A DNA stretch of 39,573 nucleotides from an uncultured Pseudomonadales bacterium (lineage in GTDB: Bacteria; Patescibacteriota; Microgenomatia; UBA1400; MFAQ01): positions 1-39,573 of the forward strand of contig CAZIPD010000002.1 of NCBI GenBank assembly GCA_964541175.1, read 5' to 3'. The notes below the pieces were generated by a model. It did no database searches. It worked only from the letters and a program-made list of their open reading frames with translations, and had not been told where the DNA came from. The translations under genes and the position numbers were made by a program. This document shows, piece by piece, positions 60-39,534 of the stretch; within the stretch, counting starts at the first letter, position 1, and every line of letters begins with the position of its first letter.

Positions 60-941
60 ATGGCCATCCAGCAGCACCCCCTACCACAGGACATCAGTAG
101 CTACCGCTTCCGCTTGATCGGTGACATGACCATCAAGCAATTTGGTATGCTTGCCGCAGGCATCATTCTGGCCATTCTCTTCTATTCCTCACCTCTACCC
201 TTCTTCTTCAAGTACCCCATTTCTTTCATTTTCCTCGTGCTTGGAATAGGCTCCGCCTTCGTTCCTGTCCAAGGCCGTCCTCTGGATCAATGGATCCTAG
301 CCTTCATCAAATCTATCTATGCTCCCACCCAATACACCTGGCGCCAGACCCCGCCGGAAGAAGCGGCTCAAACCGCACTCACTCAATCACCTCTTACTTC
401 TGCCCCCAAAGCCCCCTCCGTCAGCCCCTCTTCCACCGTCCCTGCCGCTGCTCCACTCCCGGTAGCCGTTCCTGAACCCATCACTCCCGCACCCGAAACC
501 CCACCTGAGCCTGAAATAGTCATCATTCCCGAACCTACACCACAGGAGGAACCGGAAACTCCCGCCGATCTACCCGACCTCGGTATTCCCACTCCCGCTC
601 CTGTCTCCCAGCCGGAGAATCCTTCTCAAGCTCCGGCTCCAACAACCAATCTTCCGATTCCGTTTACCCCCACCACTCCCAATACCCTGGTCGGTCTTAC
701 TCTTACCCCGGACGGAAAGATCTTGGAGAATGTCTTAGTAGAAATACTCTCCAATGGTCTGACCATAAGAGCCACCAAAAGTAACCGTCTCGGCCAATTC
801 ATGTTCGCCCGTCCTCTCGAAAAGGGCCTCTACCAGATCGCCGCCGAGAAAACCGGTTTTAACTTCTCCACTTACTCCATCGAATTAACAAACAAAATTG
901 TCTCTCCGCTCAAGATCCAAGCGGAATCGGGCACAGCATAA
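60..941 (+). CDS. PrgI/VirB3-like T4SS membrane protein fused to a Pro-rich linker and a C-terminal carboxypeptidase-regulatory-like beta domain
   Basis: ATG ORF of 293 aa. The N-terminal ~95 aa carry two TM helices and the PrgI-family pattern (PQDISSYRFRLIGDMTIKQF...GRPLDQWILAFIKSIY). It lies directly upstream of a VirB4-type ATPase. A ~110-aa Pro/Glu/Thr linker follows. The last ~75 aa (LVGLTLTPDGKILENVLVEI...GLYQIAAEKTGFNF) resemble a CarboxypepD_reg/Ig-like fold. Confidence 0.6.
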   Translation: MAIQQHPLPQDISSYRFRLIGDMTIKQFGMLAAGIILAILFYSSPLPFFFKYPISFIFLVLGIGSAFVPVQGRPLDQWILAFIKSIYAPTQYTWRQTPPEEAAQTALTQSPLTSAPKAPSVSPSSTVPAAAPLPVAVPEPITPAPETPPEPEIVIIPEPTPQEEPETPADLPDLGIPTPAPVSQPENPSQAPAPTTNLPIPFTPTTPNTLVGLTLTPDGKILENVLVEILSNGLTIRATKSNRLGQFMFARPLEKGLYQIAAEKTGFNFSTYSIELTNKIVSPLKIQAESGTA

Positions 942-944
942 CCA

Positions 945-1613
945 ATGGCCGACAACATCAGAGCTTCCACCCAGGAACATCTCGACATCTATACCATCAA
1001 GAACCATCTAGTCTTTCTCAAAGACGGTACGGTAGCTCTTGTCCTCAGGACCACTGCGATAAACTTCAATCTTCTCTCCGAAGAAGAACAAGACGCCACC
1101 ATCTATGCCTATGCCGGACTCCTTAACTCTCTTTCTTTCTCAGTTCAAATTCTCATCCGCTCTCAAAGAAAGAATATTTCCGATTACCTTGATCTTCTCG
1201 ACAACAGAATTCAGATCACCCCTTCACAAAAGATAAAGGAGCAACTCCTCGCCTACCGCCAGTTCGTCAAATCCCTGGTCAAAGAGAACCGTGTTCTTGA
1301 GAAAAAATTCTTCATCATTATTCCCTTCACCTCCCTCGAACTTGGAATTACCTCCGCTACTTTTAACCCCATCGCCAAAGCTCCCCAGAAACCTCCCTAC
1401 GATCTTGATTACATCGAAGAAAAAGCTGCCATGGCTCTGTATCCCAGAAGGGATCACTTAATAAGACAATTTGCCCGTATCGGTCTAAGGTCGCAACAAC
1501 TCACTACACCCGAACTGGTCAATCTCTTCTATTCCATCTATAACCCCTCCTCTGCCGCCACCGCTACTGCCGCCCAAACCAAGGCTATTGGCGGCATCTC
1601 TAACGATAAATAA
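945..1613 (+). CDS. hypothetical T4SS-associated protein, VirB4 N-terminal-domain-like, without a P-loop
   Basis: ATG ORF of 222 aa, 3 nt after the previous stop. It has no TM segment and no Walker motifs. Residues ~8-90 align by eye with residues ~50-130 of the adjacent VirB4. Confidence 0.55.
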   Translation: MADNIRASTQEHLDIYTIKNHLVFLKDGTVALVLRTTAINFNLLSEEEQDATIYAYAGLLNSLSFSVQILIRSQRKNISDYLDLLDNRIQITPSQKIKEQLLAYRQFVKSLVKENRVLEKKFFIIIPFTSLELGITSATFNPIAKAPQKPPYDLDYIEEKAAMALYPRRDHLIRQFARIGLRSQQLTTPELVNLFYSIYNPSSAATATAAQTKAIGGISNDK

Positions 1614-1638
1614 AGCCTCAATCCGTTATACTTAAACT

Positions 1639-3492
1639 ATGGCTTTTAATCTCTTTGGTCGCGCCCCTAAAGCCCCCGCCAATACACCCGTCGCTGCCAC
1701 TGCGGGTACTCCTGTCATGCCGACTCCTGCTCCAACCCCACCACCTCCCCCTCCCCCAAAAACAAAAACTACTCAAGGAAGCACCTCTGTCCAAGACATC
1801 ATCGCTCCCTCGGCCATAGAAATAGATTTTTCCAGTTTAAAAATAGATGACGTCTACCTCCGCACTCTCTTTGTCACCGGATATCCCCGCTATGTCTCGG
1901 CCAACTGGCTCTCTCCTTTGATTAACTTCAATCACTCTCTTGATATCGCTATGTATGTTTATCCCAGCGATTCCAAAGATACTCTTGATCAACTAAGACG
2001 CCGTATCGCCGAGATGGAAGCGGAGATCAATACCGATATTGAACGCGGGCGCATTCCCCAAGCCAGTACGGAAGCCGGTCTTGAAGACGCCAAATCCCTC
2101 CAGGAGCAACTGGTCAAAGGGGCTGAACGTTTCTTCCAGTTCTCTCTCTACATCACCGTTTCTGCCGACTCCATTAAAGAACTCAATACCATCACCTCAC
2201 AGATCCAGTCGATGCTTGCCTCTCTTCTCATCATCGGTAAGACCGCTTCTCTCTCCATGGAGGACGCCTTCAAAACCACCCTTCCCTACTGTAAAGATCG
2301 TTTGATGATCACCAGGAACATGGATACCACTGCTCTTTCCACTACTTTCCCCTTCACCTCCTCTGAACTCTCTGATAACCAAGGGATCCTTTACGGTATC
2401 AACTCTCATAATGACTCTCTCGTCATCTTTGATCGTTTCTCTCTGGAGAACGCCAATATGCTCGTTCTGGCCACCTCCGGTGCCGGTAAATCATACTGTG
2501 TCAAACTCGAGATTCTTCGTTCTCTGATGTTTGATACACAGATCATAGTTCTCGATCCCGAGAATGAATACGAAATGATCGCCAAAGCCGTTGGTGGCAA
2601 CTATCTCTCCTTCGCTTCCACCTCTGCCCATAAAATTAATCCTTTCCAAATTGCCAAGCCCCTTGAAAGTACCGAGGACGAGATGGGATATAAATATCTC
2701 TTCCTCATGTCCCTTCTAAAGATCATGATCGGGGAAATGTCACCCATGGAAGACGCCACTATGAACCGGGCCCTCGTTCTTACGTATCGGCAAAAAGGTA
2801 TCACCGAGGATCCTTCAACTCATGTCATTGAAGCCCCTCGCATGGAAGATCTCTACCGGGCCCTCATCGGCATGGAAGAACCCGTCAGTAAGATCCTCGC
2901 TGCCAGGCTGGAACGCTACGTCATGGGCTCGATCAAAGGCATCTTTGACCAGCAATCGAACATCGACATCAACGCTCCTGTTACCATCTTTTCCATGCGC
3001 GACCTTGCCGATGAGATCCGTCCCATCGTCATGTTCATGATCCTCGACTTCGTTTGGACTCAAGTAAGAAAAGATCTTCGGAAGCGCATGCTCATCGTCG
3101 ATGAGGCCTGGTATCTCATGCGCTATGAAGACTCTGCCAAGATTCTTCAAGGATTTGTTAAACGTGCACGCAAATACTTCCTCGGGGTCACCGTCATCTC
3201 CCAGAACGTCGATGATTTCCTTGGTTCACCCTATGGTAAAGCCATCATCACCAACTCCGCTCTCAAACTCCTACTCAAACAATCCTCTGCCGCCATCAAC
3301 CAAATATCAGAGGTCTTCTTCCTTTCGCAAGGAGAACGTCAACTCCTTCTCTCCGCCAATATAGGAGAAGGGATCTTCTTTGCCGGTCAAAATCATGTCG
3401 CTATGAAGATCATTTCCTCTCCCGATGAACACGCTCTCGCCACCAGTAAACCATCGGAAATTCTAGATCGTCAAAAAGCTGCCCCTGTCTAA
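1639..3492 (+). CDS. virB4: VirB4/PrgJ/TrsE-family type IV secretion ATPase
   Basis: 617 aa. Walker A is ATSGAGKS (2470-2493) and Walker B is MLIVDEAWYL. The C-terminal motif ARKYFLGVTVISQNVDDF is typical of VirB4/TraE. The N-terminus is Pro-rich. Confidence 0.85.
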   Translation: MAFNLFGRAPKAPANTPVAATAGTPVMPTPAPTPPPPPPPKTKTTQGSTSVQDIIAPSAIEIDFSSLKIDDVYLRTLFVTGYPRYVSANWLSPLINFNHSLDIAMYVYPSDSKDTLDQLRRRIAEMEAEINTDIERGRIPQASTEAGLEDAKSLQEQLVKGAERFFQFSLYITVSADSIKELNTITSQIQSMLASLLIIGKTASLSMEDAFKTTLPYCKDRLMITRNMDTTALSTTFPFTSSELSDNQGILYGINSHNDSLVIFDRFSLENANMLVLATSGAGKSYCVKLEILRSLMFDTQIIVLDPENEYEMIAKAVGGNYLSFASTSAHKINPFQIAKPLESTEDEMGYKYLFLMSLLKIMIGEMSPMEDATMNRALVLTYRQKGITEDPSTHVIEAPRMEDLYRALIGMEEPVSKILAARLERYVMGSIKGIFDQQSNIDINAPVTIFSMRDLADEIRPIVMFMILDFVWTQVRKDLRKRMLIVDEAWYLMRYEDSAKILQGFVKRARKYFLGVTVISQNVDDFLGSPYGKAIITNSALKLLLKQSSAAINQISEVFFLSQGERQLLLSANIGEGIFFAGQNHVAMKIISSPDEHALATSKPSEILDRQKAAPV

Positions 3493-18457: not shown

Positions 18458-20518
18458 TTAAGCTTTTGGCCATGCGGCTACCAGCAGCAGTCCTTCATTT
18501 GGGTACAACTCTCTCCAGACAGCCTCAGATACGAATGGAGAGAAGGGATGTATAAGTTTTAAGAAAGTCTTCATTCCTTTGCCAAGTTGAGCCGGAGACA
18601 GCTTACCTTTCTTCGCCTCCTCGATCACGCTGTCGCAATACCAGTGCCAGAATTCGTTGTAAACAAATTCCGCAGCCAACCCGATGCGCAGTGCGTCAAG
18701 ATGCTTGGTTGTCTCGATTACGACAGATCTCAAATGCTCCGTAAATTCACTACTCTCTGCCACTTCCTCCCCCTTAAACTCACCAACAAATCTCGCCGCA
18801 TTCCATACTTTATTGGCGAAATTCCTCATCCCCCTGATTTTATCCTCCCCCGTATTACTGTCCTGACCGGCAACCGTACTCATCACCAAAGCCATCCTCA
18901 AAGCATCTGTACCGTACTTGACCGTCAACTCCAAAGGATTAATAACATTCCCTTTGCTCTTACTCATTTTTTGTCCCTTTTCGTCCCTCACCAATCCGTG
19001 AAGATATACGCTCTTGAATGGAGTTTTCCCGGTCAAATAAATTGAGAGCATCATCATTCTCATCACCCAGAAGGGAAGTATCTCGTAAGCGGTCTCCATT
19101 ACACTCGTTGGATAGTAAGCCTCAAAATCTCCTGGTTTATTAAGTTTCAAGGTCAACACTGGCCATTGTCCGGAAGAGAACCAGGTATCAAAAGTATCGG
19201 TTTCCTGTACGTAATCATCACCCGGTTTCACCAATGAGACCACATAGTCGGATTTATCGTCTCCTCTGTACCATACGGGCATTCTGATGCCCCAGACGAT
19301 CTGTCTACTGATATTCCAGTCCCTGATATTGGTTAGCCAGTGTCTCAGGATCTTTTCTCTCCCCGCACCAAGAATTACCGTGTCCCCGTTATCCAAAGCT
19401 TTCAGCGCTCCCTCTGCCAAAGGTTTGGTTTTGATAAAGAACTGACTCATCGGTAGTGGCTCGATCACTCTGTGACATCTGTAGCAAGTTCCAACACTAT
19501 GGTTATACGCCTTCGTCTCTACCGACTTATCTCCCAAGTCTACCAATACTTTTTCTCTGGCAGCAGCCACACTCAAGCCCATATACTCGCCGGCATTCCG
19601 ACTCATCTTTCCCGTGGTCTCGATCACCTGATGATCCCTAACTATCTCGCTCAAATTCATTCCGGCCCGCTCGGCCGTCTCCCAGTCATTCTGATCATGA
19701 GCGGGAGTGATCTTCACCGCCCCTGTTCCAAACTCCATATCCACTCCCTTATCGGCTATGATCGGGATTTCCCTGTTCGTTAAAGGTAACTTCACGCTTT
19801 TTCCGATCAAATGTTTGTATCTTTCATCCTCGGGGTGTACGGCCACAGCTACGTCGCCCAACAAAGTCTCGGGTCTCGTGGTCGCTACGGTAATATCGTC
19901 GTACTTGATGAAATACAATTTATCCTCTCTTTCTTCATGCTCCACCTCAAGGTCGGAGTATGCTGTTCCGCACTTGGTACAGTAATTGACCAATCTCTCG
20001 CTCTTGTATATCAATCCGTCTTCATGAAGTTTAATAAAAGTCTTCAAAACCTCATCCACAATATCCTTATCCAAGGTGAATTTGAATCTTGTCCAGTCGG
20101 CACTCGCCCCTAGCTTCTTCATCTGATCGATAGATAGCTTGGAATTCTCCTGAACATAATCCCAGATCATCTGGTACAAAGTTTCTCTATCGAAATCGAA
20201 TCGACTTTTTCCTTCCTTTGCCAATTTCTTCTCGTATACGAACTGGGTCTCTATTCCGGCATGATCGGTTCCCGGTAACCATAGAGTTGGCTCTCCCAAC
20301 ATTCTGTGATATCTGGTAAGGATATCCTCGACCGTTACGAACATGGCATGTCCCACATGAAGTGGGTCATTGGCGTTCGGTGGCGGCATGATGATGGTAA
20401 ATGGTTTCTTACCCGACTCGATAACTTCATTCCCTGATGGGGGAGTAAAAGCTCCACTCTCTTCCCAAAGTTTAATTAATTCCGGTTCGGTTTGGTTAAA
20501 ATCAAAAGTTTTGTTCAT
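18458..20518 (-). CDS. valS: valine--tRNA ligase (short form lacking the long C-terminal coiled coil)
   Basis: PPPNANDPLHVGHAM (HIGH), LWLPGTDHAGIETQ, WNISRQIVWGIRMPVWY and KMSKSKGNV (KMSKS). I chose the start at ATG 20518 (MNKTFDF...) because the upstream in-frame ATG at 20608 lies inside the T-box leader. Confidence 0.9.
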   Translation of the reverse strand: MNKTFDFNQTEPELIKLWEESGAFTPPSGNEVIESGKKPFTIIMPPPNANDPLHVGHAMFVTVEDILTRYHRMLGEPTLWLPGTDHAGIETQFVYEKKLAKEGKSRFDFDRETLYQMIWDYVQENSKLSIDQMKKLGASADWTRFKFTLDKDIVDEVLKTFIKLHEDGLIYKSERLVNYCTKCGTAYSDLEVEHEEREDKLYFIKYDDITVATTRPETLLGDVAVAVHPEDERYKHLIGKSVKLPLTNREIPIIADKGVDMEFGTGAVKITPAHDQNDWETAERAGMNLSEIVRDHQVIETTGKMSRNAGEYMGLSVAAAREKVLVDLGDKSVETKAYNHSVGTCYRCHRVIEPLPMSQFFIKTKPLAEGALKALDNGDTVILGAGREKILRHWLTNIRDWNISRQIVWGIRMPVWYRGDDKSDYVVSLVKPGDDYVQETDTFDTWFSSGQWPVLTLKLNKPGDFEAYYPTSVMETAYEILPFWVMRMMMLSIYLTGKTPFKSVYLHGLVRDEKGQKMSKSKGNVINPLELTVKYGTDALRMALVMSTVAGQDSNTGEDKIRGMRNFANKVWNAARFVGEFKGEEVAESSEFTEHLRSVVIETTKHLDALRIGLAAEFVYNEFWHWYCDSVIEEAKKGKLSPAQLGKGMKTFLKLIHPFSPFVSEAVWRELYPNEGLLLVAAWPKA

Positions 20519-20690
20519 TTGGATTTCAAATAATAAATAGCCCTCGTCTAATTCCAGTATATATAGGAAATAGGCGAGGGCCATCTCAGGCGGTACCACC
20601 TCGTGCATTCTGCTCTTTGAGAGTTCTACTCAAGCTTGCGCTCTTTCTTCTCCTGGCTCACGGATGACTAATCCGGTCTTAGCTTTTCAA
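20519..20690 (-). promoter_or_regulatory. T-box riboswitch leader of valS
   Basis: On the minus strand, 20603-20575 reads CGAGG-UGGUACC-GCC-UGAGAU-GGC-CCUCG. This is the canonical antiterminator: helix A1, a 7-nt bulge and helix A2, containing the conserved GGUGGUACCGC. Its 3' strand CCUCG is shared with the terminator 5' strand. Val codons GUC-A (20668-20665) and GUA-G (20629-20626) lie in candidate specifier positions. Confidence 0.75.
20527..20581 (-). terminator. T-box leader intrinsic terminator
   Basis: On the minus strand, GCCCUCGCCUA-U-UUCC[UAUAUAUACU]GGAA-U-UAGACGAGGGC is followed by UAUUUAUUAUUUG. It ends 8 nt before the valS ATG. Confidence 0.75.
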
Positions 20691-20699
20691 ATTATAACA
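20691..20699 (-). promoter_or_regulatory. extended -10 promoter (TGTTATAAT) for the valS leader
   Basis: The minus strand reads TGTTATAAT and overlaps the tsaD stop codon. There is no clear -35, which is consistent with an extended -10 promoter. Confidence 0.45.
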
Positions 20700-38486: not shown

Positions 38487-38526
38487 CTCTCGGAAAAAAT
38501 ATCCGTTGAACTGAACGATGTTTGTG

Positions 38527-38598
38527 AGGCCGGTGCCGGAGTCGAACCGGCGCATGGCGGTTTTGCAGACCGCAGCGTTACCCCTTCGCCAACCGGCC
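38527..38598 (-). tRNA. tRNA-Cys (anticodon GCA)
   Basis: I folded the cloverleaf by hand. Acceptor stem is GGCCGGU/ACCGGCC. The D arm is GCGA...(A)CGC with an A13-A22 mismatch. The anticodon stem GCGGU/ACCGC closes the loop CUGCAAA. The variable loop is CAUGC. The T arm is GCCGG-UUCGACU-CCGGC. The discriminator is U73. No CCA is encoded. Confidence 0.9.
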
Positions 38599-38643
38599 GA
38601 AATCTTTCATATTTTAGCATCTATCTGGTACACTAAGCTTAAT

Positions 38644-39534
38644 ATGAAATCGAGACTAATTAGTTTCCTGAGCCTGCTTCTTTTTTCTGTCTTTCTCTCA
38701 GGTTGTAGCCTCAATATCTTCTCTCGCCGTTCGGGAACTCAAATTACCTCCAATCCCCAAGCCGAGATCACCATCAATGGTGAAAGCTACGGTAAAACTC
38801 CTTACGTCAACGAAAATTTAAAAGCCGGAGAATACACGATCAGACTCACACCCATAGATCAGGAACTTCAACCATGGGAGATTAAGACAGTCTTCTCCCC
38901 GGGCTATCAAATCATTGTCGATAGACAGTTTGGCAAGACCCAAGACCAATCCAGCAATCATACCCTCTCCTTCGAGAAGCTCAACGACAAAAAGTCTACT
39001 GAAGTTAGCATCATCAGTAATCCCTCAAATATTTCGGTCGCCGTAGATAAAGTCCCTAAAGGTTTTACCAATCGCCCCATCGAAAATATAGAGGTCGGAG
39101 AACATACCTTTGATTTCTCCGCTCCTGGATACCAAGACAAACGGGTCCAGGGCCGTGTATTTGCCGGTCAGCGCCTGGTCATCAATGTCACTCTGGCAAC
39201 GGCCCCGGTCGTTCCCACTCCTACGCCCTCACCTCTTGCTACTCCCTCAGCTACCCCTTCCCCGTCAAAGGGAGCCTCTACGATCACTCCTCTTCCCAAA
39301 CAGGCCACGATCTCCGCCCTCCTTGTGAAACCATATGTGGAAATAGTCTCCCCGGTTATGACCTGGGCTAGAGTTAGAGCTGAAGCGAGTATCTCATCGG
39401 ATGAGCTGGCAAAGGTGAACCACGGAGACTCCTTTAACTACAAAGATATGGAAACCGCCGGTTGGTACTACATAGAATACCTCAAGGACAAATGGGGCTA
39501 TGTTTCAAGTCAGTACGCCAAGCTCGTCAAATAA
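38644..39534 (+). CDS. lipoprotein with two PEGA-like domains, a Pro/Thr/Ser linker and a C-terminal bacterial SH3 domain
   Basis: 296 aa from ATG 38644. The signal peptide and lipobox are MKSRLISFLSLLLFSVFLSGC. PEGA-like segments are ITINGESYGKTPYVNENLKAGEYTIRL and ISVAVDKVPKGFTNRPIENIEVGEHTF. The SH3-like segment is ARVRAEASISSDELAKVNHGDSF...GWYYIEY...WGYVSSQY. Confidence 0.7.
   Translation: MKSRLISFLSLLLFSVFLSGCSLNIFSRRSGTQITSNPQAEITINGESYGKTPYVNENLKAGEYTIRLTPIDQELQPWEIKTVFSPGYQIIVDRQFGKTQDQSSNHTLSFEKLNDKKSTEVSIISNPSNISVAVDKVPKGFTNRPIENIEVGEHTFDFSAPGYQDKRVQGRVFAGQRLVINVTLATAPVVPTPTPSPLATPSATPSPSKGASTITPLPKQATISALLVKPYVEIVSPVMTWARVRAEASISSDELAKVNHGDSFNYKDMETAGWYYIEYLKDKWGYVSSQYAKLVK

Follow-up and report, generated by a model that had tools for sequence, protein, structure and literature searches.

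Does the short minus-strand leader ahead of valS on a contig of the candidate phyla radiation (CPR) couple this gene to the charging of its tRNA, and by which parts could it do so? The contig (CAZIPD010000002.1 of GenBank assembly GCA_964541175.1; the window below means this whole stretch of 39,573 nt) is deposited as an uncultured Pseudomonadales bacterium and is placed by GTDB in the Patescibacteriota, Microgenomatia. T-boxes are the classic example of one RNA being read by another, and a preliminary description of the sequence had claimed a compact T-box with room for only a very short Stem I. We consider it very probable that the leader (20683-20527, 157 nt) is a strongly reduced, valine-specific T-box riboswitch gating transcription into valS. 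Judged from its sequence it carries core T-box features, namely the bulge, a specifier that matches the gene, the kink-turn (K-turn) and a competing antiterminator and terminator, and it lacks several features that define either described T-box class. It would be one member of a widespread, apparently unannotated family of CPR mini T-boxes.

Anatomy of the valS leader

The downstream gene (18458-20518, minus strand) was confirmed as valS, as had been proposed. Its 686-aa product, ValRS, matched the NCBIfam equivalog NF004349 with 800.6 bits against a cutoff of 704 and covered model positions 2-697 of 860, the C-terminal coiled-coil region being absent. ValRS orthologues of related genomes are likewise short (683-686 aa). 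The gene preceding the leader is tsaD. An ATG at 20608, given by the open reading frame (ORF) finder as the start of valS, was rejected, and the leader was taken as not coding because in-frame stops occur in 8 of 11 orthologous leaders.

All features named in the preliminary description were present on the minus strand, to which the coordinates below refer, and the full segmentation matched the sequence exactly. An extended -10 box, TGTTATAAT (20699-20691), would act as the promoter. The tsaD stop codon (20694-20692) lies inside this box and 7 nt separate the box from the K-turn; TGNTANNNT was found in 10 of 11 orthologous leaders with its 3' end 6-11 nt ahead of the K-turn. The leader proper opens with a Stem I module, GC-UAA-GA-C-CGGA-UUAGUCA-UCCG-U-GA-GC (20683-20656), supported by pair counts and covariation. 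Its K-turn includes a C-stem, seen in the sequence and by covariation, in which GC at 20683-82 is paired with GC at 20657-56, a UAA bulge (20681-79) and a tandem G•A formed by GA at 20678-77 and GA at 20659-58. Stem I itself is as short as had been anticipated, with a 4-bp helix (CGGA 20675-72 and UCCG 20664-61) and the 7-nt apical loop UUAGUCA (20671-20665), which ends in the specifier GUC (20668-20666) and a 3' purine, A (20665). Two specifier candidates had been put forward, and this GUC-A is the one that stood, being invariant in all 11 valS leaders and matching the gene. The other, GUA-G (20629-20626), was rejected as it lies within an invariant S-turn strand of Stem II, (A/G)(A/G)GUAGAA, opposite AAGAAA.

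The dinucleotide CA separates the Stem I module, which ends at 20656, from Stem II with its S-turn, GGAG-AAGAAA-GAGC-GCAA-GCUU-GAGUAGAA-CUCU (20653-20620). An outer helix (GGAG 20653-50 and CUCU 20623-20) and an inner helix (GAGC 20643-40 and GCUU 20635-32, with the loop GCAA at 20639-36) enclose the S-turn internal loop, where AAGAAA (20649-44) faces GAGUAGAA (20631-24). A purine-rich linker of 16 nt, CAAAGAGCAGAAUGCA (20619-20604), leads to the T-box antiterminator, CGAGG-UGGUACC-GCC-UGAGAU-GGC-CCUCG (20603-20575). This is composed of helix A1 (CGAGG 20603-20599 and CCUCG 20579-20575), the 7-nt bulge UGGUACC (20598-20592), of which UGGU is predicted to pair with the tRNA 3' end ACCA, and helix A2 (GCC 20591-20589 and GGC 20582-20580, with a G-C closing pair) bearing the loop UGAGAU (20588-20583). 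The 5' arm of the terminator hairpin (20581-20540) reuses the GC of A2 and the A1 3' strand CCUCG, and the remainder of the hairpin is CCUAUUUCC-UAUAUAUACU-GGAAUUAGA-CGAGGGC (20574-20540). A U-rich tail, UAUUUAUUAUUUG (20539-20527), and an 8-nt spacer, AAAUCCAA, follow before the valS ATG (20518-20516). A generic terminator scan of the window found nothing, as the hairpin loop is 10 nt.

The antiterminator and the terminator share the strand 20581-20575 and their pairings are exclusive, which bears out the competition between the two that had been described. The leader was more stable than shuffled sequences (fold z = -3.06). In the window the antiterminator was calculated at -9.0 kcal/mol and the terminator hairpin at -20.8 kcal/mol, and across 11 valS leaders the corresponding ranges were -5.9 to -9.0 for the antiterminator alone and -18.2 to -27.7 kcal/mol for the hairpin. 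The terminator was the more stable in every one of them, and since the difference is large the default state would be OFF, as in transcriptional T-boxes. In the 9 nt past the hairpin there were 5-8 U in all 11 leaders, with 6 in the window.

Conservation and covariation in orthologous leaders

ValRS relatives were gathered by protein similarity, not by their leaders, from species-representative genomes and metagenomes. The nearest belonged to Candidatus Collierbacteria and other Microgenomates/Patescibacteria, and 11 distinct Collierbacteria-type valS leaders remained once identical copies were removed; the ValRS proteins of their genomes were 67-85% identical to that of the window. The full window-like layout was found in eight of the leaders (the window, L001, L203, L204, L207, L005, L064 and L007, where L numbers denote the other loci). 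Stem II was absent from the remaining three, L202, L004 and L006, and the leaders of the latter two were each found in at least three independent assemblies.

Pairs were counted in the 11 leaders on a hand-registered segmentation. Every cell was paired in the K-turn C-stem (22/22, as GC, GU and AU), in A1 (55/55, with compensatory changes in L007 and L202), in A2 (33/33) and in the lower stem of the terminator (77/77). Stem IIa (30/32) and Stem IIb (25/25) showed many double-sided changes. In Stem I 42 of 45 cells were paired among the variants CGGA/UCCG, CGGG/CCCG, CGAG/CUCG, GAGG/CCUC and CGAAG/CUUCG, with double-sided changes at four positions, and all four pairs covaried in the tool counts. 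Compensatory conservation, which the preliminary description had expected of orthologous valS leaders, was therefore seen in the helices, with A2 invariant in sequence. In L007 three changes occurred together, from C to U in the A1 5' strand, from G to A in the shared strand and from C to U in the terminator 3' arm. This triple change preserves both alternative pairings, which is the mark that a genuine two-state switch would be expected to leave.

An unguided MAFFT alignment of the 8 full-length leaders had 92.4% of its cells paired in the antiterminator conformation, as against 30-52% in slid controls, and 16 pairs with double-sided changes compared with 9.5 +/- 1.6 in shuffled alignments (0/500). 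In the terminator conformation 93.8% of cells were paired, and the covariation score was 0.406 compared with 0.26 after shuffling (0/500). The specifier loop was 7 nt throughout with GUC-A at its end, and AAGAAA and UAGAA were invariant in the 8 protein-selected leaders that possess Stem II. The 11-mer GGTGGNACC[AG]C of the core occurred 12 times in about 1.28 Mb of locus DNA (both strands), where about 0.6 occurrences were expected; ten of these were directly upstream of valS on the coding strand, and the window contained a single one.

The Stem II-less leaders (L202:1074-1197, L004:2826-2946 and L006:2814-2932) have a total length of 119-124 nt, in which the K-turn/specifier hairpin is joined to the antiterminator/terminator by about 20 nt of purine-rich linker. 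They retain GUC-A and their helices still covary, and in L202 an additional helix, CUUGAG/CUCAAG, prolongs the stem below the K-turn. If they act as proposed for the window, these three would be the smallest natural tRNA-sensing riboswitches.

The leader was missing in equally close relatives (L002, L003, L008, L009, L206, L213, L215 and L216), which carry just a promoter and a Shine-Dalgarno (SD) sequence ahead of valS. In L205 (1014-1205) a decayed leader was found beside the end of tsaD, of which only AAGCACGAGGUGGUACCG remains. The decayed L205 and the leaderless L002, L003, L008 and L009 point to repeated loss of the T-box. In a further valS leader, L067:2817-2993, GUC-A and the S-turn were accompanied by a IIA-like hairpin, ACGGG-UAAG-CCCGU, and a AUGGUACC bulge set within a long hairpin, and this hairpin is directly followed by U5. 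Between the T-box terminator and the valS start of some genomes there is a repeat-like hairpin, GGAUUGCCAC-N15-20-CGCAAUGAC, which recurs elsewhere (L004:2956-3000, L006:2941-2985, L009:2967-3000, L394:4948-4990, L008:4805-4850 and L298:432-480).

A family of compact T-boxes and its specifier codons

A covariance model, R1, was built from the 8 full-length valS leaders. In the window it found one element only, with 158.7 bits, and strong matches were found in other Patescibacteria as well. At E < 0.001 it returned 93 elements, of which 90 were distinct and most were from Patescibacteria, in keeping with the earlier proposal of a T-box in a CPR genome. The leaders of ileS and aspS in CPR genomes scored 50-104 bits, although the model had been built from valS leaders only. 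CPR members scored 50-166 bits overall compared with 28 bits for L310, a locus with an Actinomycetales title.

Another search used a pattern that ignored Stem I. This pattern required the T-box core and the two S-turn strands, placed so close together that a IIA/B pseudoknot plus Stem III could not fit in. It matched 116 stretches in 185,579 species genomes, and at least 52 of the 80 titles listed among them were Patescibacteria lineages, including Saccharibacteria, Paceibacterota/Parcubacteria, Nomurabacteria, Woesebacteria, Dojkabacteria, Peribacteria, Collierbacteria and Elulimicrobiota. There were 21 pattern matches without an aminoacyl-tRNA synthetase gene. Three actinobacterial matches (L142, L178 and L199) were rejected as chance matches in coding DNA. 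An earlier genome pattern, TAGAA N3-33 AGGTGGTACCGC, gave among the matches listed mostly T-boxes of Firmicutes/Tenericutes and was useful only for L093, L135 and L161.

In a model-guided alignment of the 90 elements 95.5% of the cells were paired (33-48% in slid controls). Double-sided changes occurred in 25 of 28 pairs, with 436 such cells compared with 115 +/- 9 after shuffling (0/500). The bulge UGGUACC was present in 88 of 88 members and the GA of the K-turn was kept in 78-79 of 88 on the 5' side and in 72/77 and 83/84 on the 3' side. The linker from Stem II to A1 had a median of 18 nt. The closing pair of A2 was A-U in 58 members, among them most CPR ileS members, G-C in 28 and G•U in 2. 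A strict terminator test was satisfied by 75 of the 90 elements. To pass, the fold had to reach -10 kcal/mol or below, with the A1 3' strand in its 5' arm; the last pair could be no more than 3 nt from the U-run, and 9 nt had to hold 5 or more U.

The codon in the aligned specifier loop was compared with the tblastn class of the downstream gene, with the reference genes confirmed. AUC-A/G stood before IleRS in 50 elements, to which five loops of the form CUAUCAA, shifted by one register, can be added; GUC-A stood before ValRS in 12 of 12 elements and GAC-G/A before AspRS in two. No conflict between codon and gene was found among elements with a readable loop. In 16 further ileS-linked elements Stem I was unaligned and the loop unreadable, and the loop AUAUAAA of L289 was ambiguous. 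This correspondence is an independent test of the T-box assignment and of the choice of GUC, and it favours both at the level of sequence comparison.

Three elements had AAC-A before AspRS, and AAC is a codon for Asn. An AAC specifier ahead of aspS would be sensible if the AspRS were non-discriminating and also charged tRNA-Asn. The three (L161:188-358, L383:5571-5737 and L396:5485-5652) are compact T-boxes upstream of aspS-containing operons, and their loops suggest that tRNA-Asn controls a non-discriminating AspRS there. They keep the UGGU bulge. tRNA-Asn and tRNA-Asp usually have G73, which would need a G•U pair with this bulge.

Comparison with described T-box classes

The ultrashort Stem I T-boxes of actinobacterial ileS (class II, translational; Sherwood, Grundy and Henkin 2015) were compared through the M. 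tuberculosis and N. farcinica structures (PMC7583486, PMC10651847). The valS leader shares with them the K-turn base, a very short Stem I, an apical-loop specifier with a purine after it, an AGUA/GAA-type S-turn in Stem II and a UGGNACC bulge between A1 and A2, and the elbow-binding platform is absent from both. Counted from the first K-turn nucleotide, the register was the same as in N. farcinica ileS (PMC7583486), with the specifier at 16-18, A19 and the S-turn purine at 39 (A39). The leader differs from the actinobacterial class in having no IIA/B pseudoknot and apparently no Stem III helix, and in an expression platform that is a hairpin with a U-tract terminator rather than an SD sequestrator. 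It also differs in the gene regulated, which is valS here and ileS or aspS elsewhere in the family, and in its host, Patescibacteria. The likeness to the actinobacterial ultrashort Stem I, coupled here to a terminator, thus held as first described, in the shared A19/A39 register and in the U-tracts of 11 of 11 leaders.

The linker offers no space for a IIA/B pseudoknot within its 16 nt, and about 3 nt stand where Stem III would be. Its consensus over 11 valS leaders is AA(A/U)GAG-N-A-N-AAU. The RRRxG...AA motif flanking Stem III was defined in PMC7583486, and the AAGAG of the window may correspond to the RRRxG string and its AA to the AA of canonical T-boxes. When Stem III was tested for, the AAGAG...AA flanks were present and at most a 3-bp stub, GYA-NAA-URC, was possible in 7 of 11 leaders. 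Pairing of the Stem II loop with the linker as an alternative pseudoknot was discarded, as the loop was unconserved in the 11 leaders and no partner was evident.

Canonical T-boxes as modelled by RF00230 (B. subtilis tyrS, with glyQS as the Stem II-less form) share with the valS leader the K-turn base, the specifier with its purine, the T-box sequence GGUGGUACCGC, an antiterminator of A1, 7-nt bulge and A2 that competes with a more stable terminator followed by U's, and a site ahead of an aminoacyl-tRNA synthetase gene. In contrast to the canonical form, about 76 positions of Stem I (the specifier-loop S-turn, the AG bulge and the distal loop with its interdigitated T-loops) are replaced by an apical loop of 6-7 nt, and in the class of the valS leader Stem IIA/B is deleted, as Stem III also appears to be.

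The pattern search also returned L310 (6684-6852) and L316, which share the aptamer layout of the valS leader. Both have Actinomycetales titles and a Stem III hairpin, GCUCA-AAU-UGAGC, and no U-tract, and CCUCC pairs with a GGAGG Shine-Dalgarno sequence 6 nt ahead of the AUG; they probably belong to the known actinobacterial class. In L371:5027-5189, which is a member of the family, a compact aptamer without a U-tract sequesters AAGGAG 5 nt ahead of the AUG. It appears from these loci that both read-outs, terminator and SD sequestrator, occur on closely related compact aptamers.

On balance we lean towards the view that Patescibacteria have a minimal T-box class of their own, covering at least ileS, valS and aspS, that would need no elbow platform, IIA/B pseudoknot, Stem III helix or G•U sensor and yet act co-transcriptionally through a terminator. 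A literature search found nothing linking T-boxes with Patescibacteria, the candidate phyla radiation or Saccharibacteria, with subscription journals mostly outside its scope, and this silence is weak evidence of novelty. The CPR leaders are not expected in the T-box database TBDB, whose class I entries come from RF00230 and whose class II model was applied to Actinobacteria and class I hits alone (PMC7778990).

The tRNA partner and a proposed mechanism

The UGGU bulge had been taken to predict A73 in tRNA-Val, and A73 is general in bacterial tRNA-Val. A generic tRNA-Val(GAC) pattern matched 74 stretches, of which nine were examined, eight with Patescibacteria titles and L405, whose title 'Gammaproteobacteria' looks mislabelled. 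The tRNA of L454 gave no clean parse and was excluded. In the CPR tRNA-Val(GAC) genes from other genomes, A73 was found in 8 of the 8 that were cleanly parsed, and in three CPR tRNA-Val(UAC) genes an A follows the acceptor stem too. These data agree with the GUC specifier and the UGGU bulge, and to this extent the A73 prediction is supported. In L412, L420, L429, L435 and L454 the tRNA-Val(GAC) gene adjoins a tRNA that ARAGORN called Ile with anticodon UAU. A tRNA-Ile with a UAU anticodon is an unusual isoacceptor in bacteria.

From the anatomy and the comparisons above we infer the start site, tRNA binding, charge sensing and termination as the read-out, and the steps would run as follows. 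Transcription would start a few nucleotides past the extended -10 box, or read through from tsaD. The K-turn and the 4-bp Stem I would form first, the 7-nt loop presenting GUC-A; Stem II would form next, and its S-turn purines AAGAAA would dock on the codon-anticodon helix in the manner of the actinobacterial ileS T-boxes. tRNA-Val(GAC) would bind through its anticodon. With an uncharged 3' end, ACCA-3' would pair with UGGU of the bulge and stabilise the weak antiterminator (A1 and A2, -9 kcal/mol), allowing RNA polymerase to proceed into valS. With the tRNA charged or absent, the shared strand GC-CCUCG would pair with CGAGGGC to form the terminator (-20.8 kcal/mol), and transcription would halt in the U-tract, 8 nt before the ATG.

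Weighing of the evidence and alternative explanations

Several observations weigh against a transcriptional T-box. At its gathering score RF00230 had no match in the window or in 13 related loci carrying the T-box core. With permissive filters it gave the window leader 10.7 bits against a gathering score of 93, and the match disappeared when a still shorter stretch was searched. The preliminary description had counted a score below this threshold against the T-box, and the score is literally below it. In L298, a family member, RF00230 reached 40.2 bits (E = 6.9e-8). Its alignment there covered the K-turn base, the T-box core and the AA that precedes A1; 6 nt stood in for 76 consensus positions of distal Stem I, and Stem III was deleted entirely. 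Because these positions are deleted, we attribute the low score to the model and not to the element.

Other points on this side concern the parts themselves. A2 closes with G-C in 11 of 11 valS leaders, where canonical T-boxes have a G•U steric sensor. With an ultrashort Stem I, pre-docking and tRNA binding reportedly require the IIA/B pseudoknot (PMC10651847), and Stem III was called indispensable for the discriminator (PMC7583486); both appear to be missing here. The K-turn C-stem would have only 2-3 bp at the extreme 5' end if the start site is as predicted, and the U-tract of the window is broken by other bases (UAUUUAUUAUUU). The tRNA-Val of the window's own genome, for which the A73 prediction was also made, was sought and was not found in the window, in 280 loci, in window-extending contigs or in 119 further loci. 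The family alignment was fitted to R1 and leans towards structure, for which reason the unguided counts from the valS leaders are the cleaner test of covariation. Finally, a GAGGG (20545-20541) lies in the 3' arm of the window terminator, 22 nt from the AUG and with no nearer SD sequence.

The last point leads to a reading in which the same aptamer has a translational or dual read-out, the hairpin hiding GAGGG, the only SD-like sequence, until the antiterminator frees it. In the ON state this GAGGG would be single-stranded, and no SD-like sequence was found within 15 nt of the ATG in six leaders (the window, L001, L007, L202, L203 and L204). The leaderless relatives use GAGGG 3-4 nt ahead of the ATG, and sequestration of an SD sequence 5-6 nt ahead of the AUG is clear in L371 and in L310 and L316, the two loci of actinobacterial type. 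In the leaders, however, GAGGG and the AUG are 19-28 nt apart, and over 100 nt apart in L004 and L006, which exceeds normal SD spacing, and the 5-8 U past the hairpin in 11 of 11 leaders would be needless for a pure sequestrator and are missing in L310, L316 and L371. We therefore hold this read-out to be unlikely. With its GAGGG 22 nt from the AUG and no nearer SD sequence, termination is the better reading for the window, alongside which a translational contribution may exist.

It is also conceivable that the leader is a decaying, non-functional T-box relic serving as the tsaD terminator and a constitutive leader. The absence of several defining T-box modules would suit such a relic, as would L205, a clear remnant with the core only, and the leaderless state of close relatives (L002, L003, L008, L009 and others). 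Set against this, compensatory changes preserve A1, the terminator and both Stem I and Stem II in leaders whose ValRS proteins share 67-85% identity with that of the window, GUC-A and UGGUACC are invariant, and the reduced layout with matching codons stands before ileS and aspS in many CPR lineages, which would be unexpected of relics; decay is accordingly a very improbable account. A mere chance resemblance, in which GGUGGUACCGC would lie by accident in an ordinary intergenic terminator, could draw on the RF00230 score below threshold, on the chance pattern matches inside coding regions (L142, L178 and L199) and on the 21 matches without a synthetase gene. Ten of the 12 core occurrences in 1.28 Mb nevertheless sit in valS leaders, seven helices covary and the codon-gene correspondence is perfect, so that chance deserves almost no credence and, within the reach of comparative data, is refuted. 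A valine-specific T-box acting by termination is the reading retained here.

Other features of the window

The only tRNA gene encoded by the window is a tRNA-Cys gene (38526-38598, minus strand). The called start of a PEGA/SH3_3-domain ORF (38518-39534, plus strand) overlaps it on the opposite strand and, because of this overlap, was probably miscalled. At 60-3012 (plus strand) there are PrgI-like and TraC-like genes of a type IV secretion or conjugation type. The window (1-39573) has a strong compositional asymmetry between its strands, with 11,221 C and 7,438 G, even though the plus strand carries most of the long ORFs. Its GC skew is -0.20 overall and reaches -0.30 in the first 5 kb. Many of the nearest ValRS relatives (L001, L003, L008, L009 and others) are titled 'uncultured Pseudomonadales' or 'Gammaproteobacteria' bacterium, and such labels of metagenome-assembled genomes look wrong on Collierbacteria-type ValRS relatives.

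Significance

Reviews divide T-boxes into transcriptional ones with a long Stem I and translational ones with a short Stem I, the latter mostly in Actinobacteria, and regard the elbow platform, the IIA/B pseudoknot and Stem III as necessary, each in its own context. The shortest Stem I joined to a terminator without those modules would be a natural minimal construct for dissecting tRNA capture and charge sensing. For annotation, the RF00230 gathering threshold, and TBDB built on it, miss the whole CPR group. If the leaders are functional, they would contradict the current rule by which fast tRNA capture in transcriptional T-boxes depends on the elbow contact, and the CPR mini T-boxes would define the true minimal core of the mechanism. 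Reduced and largely unculturable as they are, bacteria of the CPR would then regulate at least some of their aminoacyl-tRNA synthetases by tRNA charge.

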